A DNA stretch of 7,081 nucleotides from a virus. Lineage: Duplodnaviria > Heunggongvirae > Uroviricota > Caudoviricetes. The notes beneath the pieces were generated by a model. That model did not search any database. It was not told the origin of the DNA and worked only from the letters and a program-made list of their open reading frames with translations. Every line of letters starts with the position of its first letter. Position 1 is the stretch's first letter. The position numbers were made by a program, and so were the translations under genes. The stretch lies in IMG/VR virus record IMGVR_UViG_2711768003_000002; one strand, written 5' to 3'. Shown in pieces: positions 2,617-7,081 of this stretch.

Positions 2617-2818
2617 GGACAAACAGGGACGGGCTGGAGCCTTCAACGCGCACGCCCTGTCCGGCATAGCTGATATTTTCAGGGTCATCAAAAACACCAC
2701 GTATCACCGCACCTGACTGCTCACCGGATGTCATGGTGGCTGACGTTCCCATGTACCCGCGTATCGTTTCATCGGCGCGGGCAATGGCAGCATCGAACAG
2801 GTTATCGAAATCAGCCAC
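2465..2818 (-). CDS. FII: Head-tail joining protein gpFII; 3' end lies in an N run and the end coordinate is an estimate
   Basis: The visible N-terminal 67 aa (V/MADFDNLFDAAIARADETIRGYMGTSATMTSGEQSGAVIRGVFDDPENISYAGQGVRVEGSSPSLFV) match lambda gpFII. The start codon is GTG at 2818-2816, preceded by GGGAGG, 11 nt after the FI stop as in lambda. The 3' end at 2465 assumes 117 aa. Confidence 0.7.
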
Positions 2819-2829
2819 AGCGCCTCCCG

Positions 2830-3228
2830 TTATTGCATTCTGGCCAGGCCGCGCTCTGTCATTTCGGCTGCCACACCGGCAGAGACACGAAACGCCGTTC
2901 CCGGCAGCACAAATGCCACAGGTTTATCCCGCGTGGCGTGAAGTGCATCAGTATGCAGCGTCACCAGTGCCACGACCGTGACCAGTTCAGCCGTATCCTG
3001 AATCACGGTATCCGGCTGCGCTGATACCACCTCATTTTCATGCCCGGTCAGCACATTTTCCCGGCTGAGAGGGGTGTCCTGACCGGCAGTTTCATCCGTG
3101 TCATCAAGCTCTTCTTCCAGCTCTGCCACACGAAGCGCCAGTTCTTCTTTCGTTCCCGTCAAACTGACATCGCGGTTCAATTGCTCACCCAGCTCCTGAA
3201 GACGGGCAATCAGTTCATCTTTCGTCAT
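2830..3228 (-). CDS. FI: DNA packaging / head assembly protein gpFI
   Basis: The 132-aa ORF (MTKDELIARLQELGEQLNRDVSLTGTKEELALRVAELEEELDDTDETAGQDTPLSRENVLTGHENEV...ERGLARMQ) matches lambda gpFI. ATG at 3228-3226 is preceded by GGAGGAG; TAA stop at 2832-2830. The track ORF 2830..3267 starts at an upstream in-frame ATG inside the E-FI hairpin, which is unlikely to be used. Confidence 0.9.
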   Translation of the reverse strand: MTKDELIARLQELGEQLNRDVSLTGTKEELALRVAELEEELDDTDETAGQDTPLSRENVLTGHENEVVSAQPDTVIQDTAELVTVVALVTLHTDALHATRDKPVAFVLPGTAFRVSAGVAAEMTERGLARMQ

Positions 3229-3249
3229 GAACTCCTCCACAGAGAGAAA

Positions 3250-3267
3250 ATGGCCCCGAAGGGCCAT
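3250..3267 (-). other. RNA stem-loop between E and FI: 7-bp stem with a UUCG tetraloop (AUGGCCC-UUCG-GGGCCAU in the mRNA)
   Basis: The plus strand atggccc(cgaa)gggccat at 3250-3267 is a perfect inverted repeat with a 4-nt loop. In the transcript it starts 3 nt after the E stop codon (TAA at 3272-3270) and lies about 21 nt upstream of the FI start. Confidence 0.5.
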
Positions 3268-3269
3268 GA

Positions 3270-4295
3270 TTACGCCAGTTGAACGGACACGAACTCATCA
3301 GGATCAGCCAGCAGCATCAGCGGTGCTGACTGAATCATGGTGAACTCACGCGCCGGATCGCCGGTGGTCACCCAGTTTTTCGGGTAACGGGCAGAAGCGT
3401 TAATGCCTTCGCGCTGTGCGTCCGCATCCTGAATGCAGCCATAGGTGCGCAGACCGCGAGCCTGAGTGTTCCCCAGCACCATCGTGTTGTCCGGCAGGAA
3501 GTTCTTTTTGACGCCGTTTTCCACGTACTGTCCGGAATACACGACGATGGCCACATCGCCATACATTCCCTTATAGGACACCGCTTTGCCCAGGTCTTTT
3601 ACCGCTGTCTCCAGCTCGGAATGAGAGCCGCGACGGGTATCCAGCTTCTCCTTGACGGCTTTGAAGGAACGGAACAGCGCCCAGCCTTTCGGGTCAAACA
3701 CGATGATATTCACCACACCGCTGGCGTTCAGCGCGTAGGCTTCGATATCGTCGGTCGGGTCATACGTGGACTTGTCACGCTTGCTCCACTCCGTACCGCC
3801 GGACTGCGTGATGTTGTTCGCCGCACTGCGGCCCATATCCACCTCAACCGGATCGAAGGCTTCACCGGTCATGGTGTATTTGCCCTTGAGCACGGCAGAA
3901 ACTGCCTGCATCTCTTCGACCTGAGCAATGGCCAGCTCTTCGTCACGCATGTTCTGCATGATGATGCGACGGCGGCGGTAAGCCGGGTCCGCCAGATTCT
4001 GCGGATCTTCATCCGGCAGGCGACGCAGGGTCATCTGCGGATTCACCTCATGCTTGGGTTTGACATATCCCGGCGTAAATTCAGAGGTGGAGCCGCCACG
4101 GGAACGGATAACCTCACCGGAAACAATCGGCGAAACGTACAGCGCCATGTTTACCAGTCCCGGAATTTGTGAGAGATAGACTTTCTCCGTGGTGAAGGGA
4201 TAGCTCTCACGGAAAAAGAGACGCAGAAACAGCGGATCAAACTTAAATTTCTGCTCATTTGCCGCCAGCAGCTGGGCGGTTGTGTACATCGACAT
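3270..4295 (-). CDS. E: Major capsid protein gpE
   Basis: The 341-aa ORF (MSMYTTAQLLAANEQKFKFDPLFLRLFFRESYPFTTEKVYLSQIPGLVNMALYVSPIVSGEV...DEFVSVQLA) matches lambda gpE over its full length. ATG at 4295-4293; TAA stop at 3272-3270. The gap to the FI start is 41 nt, as in lambda. The track ORF extends to 4322 from an upstream in-frame ATG (MWLFLRDFF...) that is not supported. Confidence 0.93.
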   Translation of the reverse strand: MSMYTTAQLLAANEQKFKFDPLFLRLFFRESYPFTTEKVYLSQIPGLVNMALYVSPIVSGEVIRSRGGSTSEFTPGYVKPKHEVNPQMTLRRLPDEDPQNLADPAYRRRRIIMQNMRDEELAIAQVEEMQAVSAVLKGKYTMTGEAFDPVEVDMGRSAANNITQSGGTEWSKRDKSTYDPTDDIEAYALNASGVVNIIVFDPKGWALFRSFKAVKEKLDTRRGSHSELETAVKDLGKAVSYKGMYGDVAIVVYSGQYVENGVKKNFLPDNTMVLGNTQARGLRTYGCIQDADAQREGINASARYPKNWVTTGDPAREFTMIQSAPLMLLADPDEFVSVQLA

Positions 4296-4332
4296 AAAAA
4301 AATCCCGTAAAAAAAGCCACACAGGCGGCCTT

Positions 4333-4642
4333 NNNNNNNNNNNNNNNNNNNNNNNNNNNNNNNNNNNNNNNNNNNNNNNNNNNNNNNNNNNNNNNNNNNN
4401 NNNNNNNNNNNNNNNNNNNNNNNNNNNNNNNNNNNNNNNNNNNNNNNNNNNNNNNNNNNNNNNNNNNNNNNNNNNNNNNNNNNNNNNNNNNNNNNNNNNN
4501 NNNNNNNNNNNNNNNNNNNNNNNNNNNNNNNNNNNNNNNNNNNNNNNNNNNNNNNNNNNNNNNNNNNNNNNNNNNNNNNNNNNNNNNNNNNNNNNNNNNN
4601 NNNNNNNNNNNNNNNNNNNNNNNNNNNNNNNNNNNNNNNNNN
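4333..4642. other. Run of 310 N (masked or unresolved sequence) covering the D 3' end and most of the D-E spacer
   Basis: Uninterrupted n characters in the supplied sequence. Confidence 1.
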
Positions 4643-5368: not shown

Positions 5369-6082
5369 CCGGGACTGCAGTGTTTCCCGGACGTCATCCG
5401 GTAGATGGCTGTAGGGGTTGCCATCCACCTTATGGCTGCCGCTGTAAATCAGCGTGATTTCCACGCCCTGTTTCTCCAGCGCAGCGCCGTAATTACTGTG
5501 AGCCATCATGACGCCGATGGAGCCTGTCCGGGCGGTCTGCGTGACCAGACGCCGGGAGGCGGCACTGGCAAGCAGCTGACCTGCGCTGCAGTTCATGTCA
5601 TTGGCCAGCGCCCATACCGGCTTTATGTCACGCACACGGGCGATGATGTCAGCGCAGTCAAATGCTCCCGCCACCATTCCGCCCGGTGTGTCCATATCGA
5701 GCAGAATGCCGTCCACCATCGGGTCGCTGGCAGCCTGTTGCAGACGGGCGATAATGCCGTTGTAACCGGTCATCCCCGAGTACGGCTGCAGCGCCCGCGT
5801 CCGGCTGACCAGCGTGCCGGACACCGGCAGCACGGCGATGCCGTTCATTACCTGATAACTGCGGGCCTGTCGTGGTCCGTCATCATCACCGGATAACGCC
5901 AGCGCCGCGGGTGCCTCTCCGGCAGTCAGGCTGTCGCCGGATACTGCATCCGTCAGGCAGCTGATCCCAAGCTGGCCTGCAAGCGCACAAAAGAAAACCC
6001 GCGCATAGGCGGGTTCAAGCATCAGCGGCTCATTAAAAGCCATGCTGGCAATATGCGGGAGATTACGCAGCTCTGCTGTCAC
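4763..6082 (-). CDS. C: Capsid assembly (prohead) protease gpC
   Basis: The 439-aa product (V/MTAELRNLPHIASMAFNEPLMLEPAYARVFF...NDLLNTPV) matches lambda gpC. The start codon is GTG at 6082-6080, preceded by GAGGAGGAGAAGA, and overlaps the B 3' end by 20 nt exactly as in lambda. TAA stop at 4765-4763. The track ORF 4763..6217 runs further upstream into B and is not used. Confidence 0.9.
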   Translation of the reverse strand: MTAELRNLPHIASMAFNEPLMLEPAYARVFFCALAGQLGISCLTDAVSGDSLTAGEAPAALALSGDDDGPRQARSYQVMNGIAVLPVSGTLVSRTRALQPYSGMTGYNGIIARLQQAASDPMVDGILLDMDTPGGMVAGAFDCADIIARVRDIKPVWALANDMNCSAGQLLASAASRRLVTQTARTGSIGVMMAHSNYGAALEKQGVEITLIYSGSHKVDGNPYSHLPDDVRETLQSRMDATRRMFAQKVSAYTGLSVQAVLDTEAAVYSGQEAIDAGLADELVNSTDAITVMRDALDARKSRLSGGRMTKETQSTTVSATASQADVTGVVQATEGENASAAQPDVNAQITAAVAAENSRIMGILNCEEAHGREEQARVLAETPGMTVETARRILAAAPQSAQTRSDTALDRLMQGAPAPLAAGNPASDAVNDLLNTPV

Positions 6083-7081
6083 TCTTCTCCTCCTCTGTTG
6101 ATTGTCGCAGCCCGGATTCAAATGCCGCAGCCGCCCAGGCGGGCGGTTTAAGACCAGCTGCGCGGCGCTCCATCGTTTCACGGACCTGCTGGGCAAAAAT
6201 TTCCTGATAGTCGTCACCGCGTTTCGCGCACTCTTTCTCGTAGGTGCTCAGTCCGGCTTCTATCAGCATCACCGCTTCCTGAACTTCTTTCAGACCATCG
6301 ATGGCCATACGACCGGAGCCTATCCAGTCGCAGTTCCCCCAGGCACTGCGGGCTTCCTGAAAACTGAAGCGCGCTTTTGAAGGTAACGTCACCACGCGGC
6401 GAACGATGGCCTCTTCCAGCCAGCACAGAAACATCTGGCTCGCCTGACGGGATGCGACGAATTTTCGCCGCCCCATAAAGTACGCCCACGACTCGTTCGC
6501 ACTGGCCCGTGCCGTGGAGTAGCTCATCTGGGCGTAATTCCGGGAAAGTTGCTCATACGAGACACCCAGCCCGGCAGCGATATACCGCAACAGTGACTGC
6601 TCAAACACGGAGTAGCCGTTATCCGTGTCCTGAGCCGTCTGCAGGTTCAGTGAGTCCCCCGGCATCAGGTGCGGCACTTTTGCGCCTCCCAGACGGACCG
6701 GTGCTGCGGCGTAATACGCGGCAATTTCACCAATCCAGCCCGTCAGCCTTTCCCGCTGCTCCTTACTGTTCGCGCCCAGAATAAAATCCATCGCTGACTG
6801 CGTATCCAGCTCACTTTCAATGGTGGCGGCATACATCGCCTTCACAATGGCGCTCTGCAGCTGCGTGTTCTGCAGCGTGTCGAGCATCTTCATCTGCTCC
6901 ATTACGCTGTAAAACACATTTGCACCGCGGGTCTGCCCGTCCTCCACGGGTTCAAAAACGTGAATGAACGAGGCGCGCCCGCCGGGTAACTCACGGGGTA
7001 TCCATGTCCATTTCTGCGGCATCCAGCCAGGATAGCCGTCCTCGCTGACGTAATATCCCAGCGCCGCACCGCTGTCATTAA
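6063..7081 (-). CDS. B: Portal protein gpB, C-terminal about 339 aa; 5' end is beyond the right edge of the window
   Basis: The translation (...MPQKWTWIPRELPGGRASFIHVFEPVEDGQTRGANVFYSVMEQMKMLDTLQNTQLQ...GLRQSTEEEKSDSRAA) matches the C-terminal portion of lambda gpB. TAA stop at 6065-6063. The reading frame stays open to position 7081. Confidence 0.92.
   Translation of the reverse strand, partial: NDSGAALGYYVSEDGYPGWMPQKWTWIPRELPGGRASFIHVFEPVEDGQTRGANVFYSVMEQMKMLDTLQNTQLQSAIVKAMYAATIESELDTQSAMDFILGANSKEQRERLTGWIGEIAAYYAAAPVRLGGAKVPHLMPGDSLNLQTAQDTDNGYSVFEQSLLRYIAAGLGVSYEQLSRNYAQMSYSTARASANESWAYFMGRRKFVASRQASQMFLCWLEEAIVRRVVTLPSKARFSFQEARSAWGNCDWIGSGRMAIDGLKEVQEAVMLIEAGLSTYEKECAKRGDDYQEIFAQQVRETMERRAAGLKPPAWAAAAFESGLRQSTEEEKSDSRAA

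Follow-up and report, generated by a model that had tools for sequence, protein, structure and literature searches.

The intergenic hairpin between the major capsid protein gene E and gene FI of a lambda-like phage possesses a stem that, judged from the comparison of related loci, is under purifying selection, and the hairpin most probably serves to delimit the capsid message and to shield its end. As a structural element it is already known and ordinary, being the lambda-type copy of a stem-loop annotated before in related phages. The angle added here is only mildly novel: the hairpin, rather than termination, is regarded as the conserved unit, and E is bracketed by two such structures. The first-pass annotation of this DNA had proposed that the RNA between E and FI folds into a structure with a function, a notion that is borne out by the conserved stem, by the covariation of its outer pairs, and by the presence of unrelated hairpins in distant E-type loci.

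The window, i.e. the whole stretch of 7,081 nucleotides that was analysed, originates from a lambda-like phage; over the 901 nt at the E-FI junction (2800-3700), it is 99.7% identical to mEp332 and 96.3% identical to lambda. Genes and signals of this junction are located on the minus strand. Gene E (3270..4295), encoding the major capsid protein of 341 aa, was assigned according to its translation, the lambda annotation, and 100% identical E proteins found, and ends with the stop codon TAA (3272-3270). Gene FI (2830..3228) encodes the DNA packaging chaperone of 132 aa; besides its translation and the lambda annotation, this assignment is based on a match of the product to the Pfam family Packaging_FI (E = 2.6e-56). 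The FI start codon ATG (3228-3226) is preceded by the Shine-Dalgarno (SD) sequence GGAGGAG (3232..3238), and a GGAG 6-10 nt before the ATG is conserved across the alignment of relatives. Read along the minus strand, the order of elements is CAA CUG GCG UAA-UC-AUGGCCC-UUCG-GGGCCAU-UUUCUCUCUGU-GGAGGAG-UUC-AUG ACG AAA. FI is followed on the same strand by FII, Z, U, V, and G, which places the hairpin in the middle of an operon and not at the end of a transcription unit, where an intrinsic terminator is expected. No promoter-like site was found along with this run of genes.

The hairpin (3250..3267, minus strand) consists of a 5' arm AUGGCCC (3267-3261), a loop UUCG (3260-3257), and a 3' arm GGGCCAU (3256-3250). 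The first-pass annotation thus gave correctly its position, its 7-bp stem without mismatch, and its C(UUCG)G loop. Five of the seven pairs are G-C, and together with the 4-nt loop this corresponds to the GC-rich stem and loop of an intrinsic terminator. Merely 2 nt separate the E stop codon from the stem; such a location, immediately past the more highly expressed cistron, is expected of an mRNA stabiliser. Folded alone, the hairpin reaches -12.3 kcal/mol (z = -3.3 against dinucleotide shuffles). The 44-nt stretch 3229-3272, for which a fold had been suggested as a check, is stable as well with -17.4 kcal/mol (z = -2.6). The hairpin is retained in a 141-nt fold, and its pair probabilities range from 0.76 to 1.0 in a 300-nt context. 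In the 44-mer, RNAfold additionally joins the tail (3249-3243) to the SD sequence of FI (3238-3232); this helix was discarded as a candidate, since it is mostly composed of G-U pairs, is paired in 71-91%, and does not appear in RNAalifold.

Perfect 7-bp hairpins with loops of 3-8 nt are not rare in the window (4 vs. 2.7 +/- 1.8 in dinucleotide shuffles); the number expected to lie wholly within the 41-nt E-FI gap is ~0.01. In an inverted-repeat search of the window, the E-FI hairpin was the sole perfect repeat of at least 7 nt with arms 3-12 nt apart. The motif is present in one copy, and a REP-like family or another repeated element was rejected on account of this uniqueness. A search of the window against Rfam 15 yielded no family at the gathering thresholds and only chance-level matches with E values up to 10. 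In lambda, the 18 nt of the hairpin recur without any change at the corresponding site, followed by the tail UGUUUCUCU, and the hairpin was found in 3,205 of 5,426 complete E. coli genomes (59%). It is the conservation of the stem together with its covariation that makes the hairpin more than a product of chance.

To follow this conservation, loci encoding relatives of E were gathered from IMG/VR, GTDB genomes, and GenBank phages. A close set was defined by E proteins at least 95% identical (104 loci, 39 haplotypes). Here, one of the 14 stem positions is variable, an A -> G exchange in the outermost pair that keeps a G-U pair; elsewhere in the same set, variation affects 20 of 60 third-codon positions in the flanking genes, 3 of 9 positions of the tail, and 4 of 7 positions of the SD sequence. 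A second set comprised enterobacterial prophages and phages with E proteins 87-93% identical (Kluyvera, Klebsiella, Enterobacter, Citrobacter, Trabulsiella, N15, phi80, and HK225). In these loci, the GGCCC/GGGCC core is invariant and aligned in register, and the outer two pairs covary (AU16/GU10/GC4 and UA23/CG4/UG1 among 32 distinct sequences). Changes on both sides are thus found in two of the seven pairs, AU -> GC in four sequences and UA -> CG in another four; the inner five pairs, being invariant, are uninformative on covariation. Of the stem cells in the 32 sequences, 96% are paired, which is above every slid control, and RNAalifold predicts the E-FI stem as the only consensus helix of the same alignment. 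The search for conservation and compensatory changes, which had been recommended together with the original description, therefore turned out in favour of the stem. The emphasis placed there on the UUCG tetraloop finds no such backing: relatives carry UCCG, AUUC, UGUC, UGUU, UUUC, UGCG, or UUAG in addition to UUCG, and the tetraloop was rejected as functional core because the loop varies and the stem is kept.

The distant set (E 27-75% identical) extends to phages of Erwinia, Pseudomonas, Vibrio, and Xylella, to Chi-like phages, and to marine MAGs. Taken together, 106 distinct downstream regions from lambda-type, N15/phi80-type, Pseudomonas, Chi-like, Vibrio, and Xylella phages were inspected, and nearly all of them harbor a GC-rich hairpin at most ~60 nt from the capsid stop codon. 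In the distant groups, these hairpins are unrelated in sequence to the lambda-type hairpin and equivalent to it in position. They usually belong to the top 0-5% in stability among the 34-nt folds of the 4-kb locus; lambda-type folds at the hairpin attain only the ~14th percentile of their locus, because GC-rich coding sequence folds comparably. The energy rank of 34-nt folds was hence abandoned as a significance test for lambda-type loci, where it is uninformative, and is informative in the distant groups only. One compensatory GC -> AU change was noticed in the Pseudomonas group. Some of the distant hairpins (L121, L140, and L187) are textbook terminators. In none of the 20 Pseudomonas- and Vibrio-type representatives do the 8 nt behind the stem contain more than two T, and in these types the 3' arm leads directly into the SD sequence of the next gene. 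Since these counterparts lack a U tract, the hairpin and not termination is taken as the common unit; across all groups, the sequences look as if a hairpin after the capsid gene were the common denominator and the U tract a variable addition.

Two GenBank records already contain the element. In N15 (AF064539), positions 7053-7073 after the major head gene are marked as 'putative rho-indep. transcription terminator', and the record of HK225 (JQ086371) carries the same putative terminator annotation at 7009-7028. In both, a second putative terminator separates the decoration gene from the gene for the capsid protein. These entries are predictions, with no experiment cited in the records, and the lambda RefSeq record has no terminator feature at the E-FI hairpin. 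According to the alignment, the E-FI hairpin is the orthologue of the N15/HK225 post-capsid stem-loop: in either case, it lies between E and FI homologues, the GGCCC-loop-GGGCC cores align column for column, and a pyrimidine tail runs into the SD sequence of FI. The outermost pair is G-C in N15 and A-U here, the N15/HK225 loop reads AUUC or UGUC instead of UUCG, stop codon and stem are 9 nt further apart in those phages, and the N15/HK225 tail has fewer U. With the element present in lambda, in complete E. coli genomes, and in the N15/HK225 records, its recognition in the window is of small consequence except for orderly annotation; phage genomes are well known to carry terminator-like hairpins behind their capsid genes.

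A companion is situated on the other side of E. The D-E gap contains the hairpin GGCCGC-CUGU-GUGGCU (4330-4315, extendable to 4332-4313; with its U tract 4309..4332, minus strand), which was recognised by sequence and fold. It ends in a U7 tract (4315-4309), the first U of which closes the core stem; it has a canonical terminator-like build and lies just upstream of E. The same element is present in lambda. Going by the lambda and mEp332 annotations, genes in this part of the late operon overlap or are 7-15 nt apart, except on either side of E, where the spacing widens to 55 nt (D-E) and 41 nt (E-FI). In the window, a hairpin is found in each of these two larger gaps.

The E-FI stem is followed by a pyrimidine/U-rich tail, UUUCUCUCU (3241..3249, minus strand), taken from the listing of the terminator-like scan as an imperfect U tract with 6 U in 9 nt, interrupted by C. 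Directly after the stem comes UUUCUCUC, in which U makes up 5 of the first 8 nt; one more U is contributed by the closing pair of the stem. A consensus terminator scan reports the site as terminator-like; this listing is to be read as a statement on anatomy and not on function, as the scan found 8 sites in the window vs. 5.7 +/- 2.2 in shuffles and hence no enrichment. A score of the d'Aubenton-Carafa type takes a weakly positive value in the window (+7.6) and amounts to -3.5 for lambda, -12.5 for N15, and +52 for L148. The tails of the enterobacterial group are T-rich throughout (median 4 T in 8 nt), with a maximum of U8 in L148; U5 tracts follow the hairpin in L121 and L140. In some lambda-type rows of the survey of relatives, the automatic stem parser took the wrong helix, and the group-A tail statistics of that survey were therefore disregarded. 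It had initially been argued that the hairpin is no canonical terminator because a U tract is missing. This has to be revised, since a U-rich tail exists and the scan lists the site, and the dismissal of terminator character is further at odds with the U8 of L148 and with the rho-independent terminators annotated for the N15 and HK225 orthologues.

Canonical terminators of E. coli and lambda, e.g. tR', likewise combine a GC-rich stem with a 4-nt loop and a 3' tail rich in T, and among those of E. coli the UUCG loop is frequent. Unlike tR'-type terminators, the E-FI hairpin has a U tract that is interrupted (UUUCUCUCU), lies mid-operon ahead of ~20 essential genes, and is transcribed by a Q-modified, terminator-resistant polymerase. 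A different kind of precedent is given by the malE-malF REP and by the intercistronic hairpins of the Rhodobacter capsulatus puf operon, which are mRNA stabilisers setting differential expression within operons. There, likewise, a stem-loop is found immediately 3' of the most-needed cistron, and the same barrier to 3'-to-5' exonucleases is proposed, with accumulation of the upstream segment. In contrast to the malE-malF REP, a single short hairpin is present here, which with one motif copy in the window does not form a repeat family. T7 T-phi is also a terminator-type hairpin right after the capsid gene (10), with read-through into structural genes. It acts on T7 RNA polymerase, is experimentally characterised, and is unrelated in sequence to the E-FI hairpin; antitermination at an intrinsic terminator in the transcription of T7 gene 10 is treated in one publication (PMC2952870).

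How the hairpin acts can be ranked with graded confidence. Of the mechanisms put forward in the first-pass annotation, namely an exonuclease barrier, a partial attenuator, and a structure that uncouples FI translation from E, the first, in the form of a barrier and leaky terminator, is ranked first; the sequence analysis does not separate the three. We give roughly an even chance to the explanation that the element is a leaky terminator-type hairpin working mainly post-transcriptionally, by shielding the D-E message from 3' exonucleases. The late genes of lambda are transcribed from a single promoter by a Q-modified, terminator-resistant polymerase (PMC10695390; PMC7547250). This polymerase would read through the E-FI hairpin in most rounds. 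Read-through must dominate because FI and the distal head-completion and tail genes need the same pR' transcript, and efficient termination at the hairpin is excluded by this operon logic, not by measurement. At most a minority of transcripts would end at the hairpin. The hairpin would stay in the mRNA and could block 3'-to-5' exonucleases after an occasional termination event or a downstream endonucleolytic cut, so that the D-E segment, encoding the two most abundant head proteins, would outlive the distal message. The D-E gap hairpin may do likewise for D, and the two hairpins would bracket E. What favours the barrier reading is the conserved location right behind the capsid cistron, a twin hairpin that follows D, and the existence of counterparts without U tract. 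Terminator hairpins have been reported in one publication to increase the stability of upstream mRNA (PMC11696848). Read-through, partial termination, and exonuclease protection at the E-FI hairpin are accordingly proposed steps, which we infer from the arrangement of the locus. Within the collection covered, a full-text literature search that included the exact sequence returned no paper on the hairpin, its 3' ends, or its decay.

Several considerations set bounds to a barrier of this kind. With -12.3 kcal/mol, the stability of the hairpin is modest, and ribosomes ending E would have to melt the stem repeatedly, as it begins 2 nt past the stop codon; both points count against a barrier, and so does the rank of lambda-type 34-nt folds, only at about the 14th percentile of their locus. 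Sampson and colleagues reportedly concluded in 1988 that the ~1000-fold range of late-protein amounts arises mainly from translation initiation on a roughly equimolar lambda transcript, and an equimolar transcript of this type would leave little room for a large stability effect. If true, the stabiliser role would add a modest post-transcriptional layer to the textbook operon. A more far-reaching version holds that the two bracketing hairpins define a processed, unusually long-lived capsid mRNA segment which contributes materially to the unequal yields of late proteins and which is common to E-type phages from enterobacteria to Pseudomonas and Vibrio, even where the U tract is absent. We regard this version as rather doubtful; were it correct, segmental stabilisation would qualify the classical view that translation initiation alone sets the ratios of late proteins.

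The strongest competitor of the barrier is a partial intrinsic terminator, i.e. an attenuator at which a fixed fraction of polymerases stops, Q-modified ones included, so that FI to J are transcribed less and mRNA stability plays no part. It is possible, yet distinctly less probable than the barrier. The anatomy that passes the consensus terminator scan, the T-rich tails in all enterobacterial relatives, the canonical tracts of L148, L121, and L140, the rho-independent terminators annotated for the N15/HK225 orthologues, and the weakly positive score of the window are all in line with attenuation. At variance with it, C interrupts the U tract here, the corresponding scores of lambda and N15 are negative, and a U tract is entirely missing from the counterparts in Pseudomonas and Vibrio. 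Furthermore, the Q-modified polymerase is terminator-resistant, and all essential downstream late genes need read-through. As the stem begins only 2 nt further on, a ribosome at the E stop codon would presumably impede folding of the hairpin during coupled transcription and translation.

An unlikely alternative is that the hairpin serves as a translational insulator between FI and the very heavily translated E, which blocks re-initiation or scanning from E and fixes the context of the FI ribosome binding site, the output of FI being set by its own SD sequence. The arrangement in all groups fits such a role: the hairpin follows the capsid stop codon and precedes the next SD sequence, its 3' arm ending 0-12 nt before GGAG; in the Pseudomonas group, this arm even abuts or overlaps the SD sequence. 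In the window, the FI start codon is part of an additional 7-bp hairpin (-7.5 kcal/mol, z = -3.9), which, however, does not exist in lambda itself. In lambda-type phages, SD sequence and start codon lie outside the main stem, and the helix between the pyrimidine tail and the SD sequence, the one absent from the RNAalifold prediction, is insignificant (-4.5 kcal/mol, z = -0.3). Insulation of FI also leaves unexplained why an equivalent hairpin with a U7 tract should directly precede E, itself highly translated, in the D-E gap.

That the hairpin has no function as RNA, being a chance palindrome, a site acting at the DNA level, or part of a longer FI frame starting from an in-frame ATG/GTG in the 5' arm, is scarcely credible: although the window has no excess of perfect 7-bp hairpins, the ATG at 3267 shares the reading frame of FI and opens a 145-aa ORF, the mEp332 and phi80 records start FI at that arm codon, and the plus strand folds almost equally well, the covariation keeps pairing and not codons, distant phages have other hairpins at this position, and the motif is single-copy in the window. 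As for a coding N-terminal extension of FI from the 5'-arm ATG, neither start codon nor frame is conserved, and the candidate was rejected: the arm start codon is absent in L107, L112, L123, and L148, the spacing to the FI ATG shifts the frame in L133 and L105, and the canonical FI ATG with its strong SD sequence is conserved. A function on the plus strand was likewise dismissed, as the hairpin folds there at -11.4 kcal/mol, yet has no T-rich tail and no other support. For annotators, the in-frame ATG/GTG in the hairpin arm (mEp332 and phi80 records) is not the FI start, and for users of the lambda D/E regions, e.g. in display vectors, two structured elements flank E.

The intergenic gap between the head gene D and the major capsid gene E harbors a terminator-like element directly 5' of the capsid gene (4309-4332, minus strand), in which GGCCGC-CUGU-GUGGCU is followed by U7. 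This element is closer to a canonical terminator than the E-FI hairpin, the 7-bp stem with a UUCG loop (3267-3250, minus strand) between the E stop codon and the Shine-Dalgarno (SD) sequence of the packaging chaperone gene FI. It is common to lambda, N15, HK225, phi80, 569R10, and Vibrio phage K288, and the records of N15 and HK225 list it as a rho-independent terminator. E is thus flanked on both sides by a hairpin, one in the D-E gap and one in the E-FI gap.

The start codon of FI itself lies within an AU-rich hairpin with a perfect 7-bp stem (AGUUCAU-GACGAAAG-AUGAACU; 3212-3233, minus strand), with a folding energy of -7.5 kcal/mol and z = -3.9 in the window. In lambda, a C in place of U3230 disrupts this structure (-3.0 kcal/mol, z = -0.1). 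Since the U variant is found in 8 of the 39 close haplotypes (derived from 104 loci with E at least 95% identical), this common polymorphism may modulate FI translation. The position of the FI start differs between public annotations. In mEp332 (L232, 2634), it is placed at an ATG within the 5' arm of the E-FI hairpin, and in phi80 (L161, 1641) at the equivalent GTG. In lambda imm434 (L002, 944-961), FI is annotated from a GTG four codons upstream, with an "RBS" marked in the hairpin's 3' arm. A conserved SD sequence plus ATG supports the start given in the lambda RefSeq record.

Lambda-like phages of Pseudomonas (L203-L216) show a post-capsid hairpin of the form CUGAGGCGCGC-loop-GCGCGCCUGCAG, located ~17-45 nt past the stop codon of the capsid gene. 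It lacks a U tract, and its 3' arm adjoins or overlaps the SD sequence (CAGGAG) of the next gene, which points to a function in translation or stability in these phages rather than in termination. An 8-bp GC-rich hairpin, GAACCCGC-CUAUGC-GCGGGUUU followed by UCUUUUGUG, lies within gene C (5995-6016, minus strand), 47 nt beyond the stop codon of B; it matches the E-FI hairpin in strength (-12.5 kcal/mol, z = -3.2), but sits in coding sequence.

Of 5,426 complete E. coli genomes, 3,205 carry the E-FI junction (query window 3130-3400), at 4,542 places in all; a single genome has up to five copies, and the majority of matches are 90-95% identical to the window. Near-identical (99%) lambda E also occurs in assemblies of unrelated organisms, on contigs that are short and of low coverage (L085-L100, L117-L155); among these organisms are Chromatium, Kitasatospora, Paenibacillus, Bradyrhizobium, Shewanella, Akkermansia, and Corynebacterium. 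These occurrences almost certainly reflect contamination by laboratory lambda DNA.

Three N runs (1468-1799, 332 bases; 2375-2616, 242 bases; 4333-4642, 310 bases) hide the greater part of U, the junction of FII and Z, and the bulk of D. Because of these runs, the mechanical ORF list fuses genes, e.g. into a 310-aa "FII+Z" ORF at 1886-2818. The distance from the D start to the E start is 72 nt longer in the window than in mEp332.
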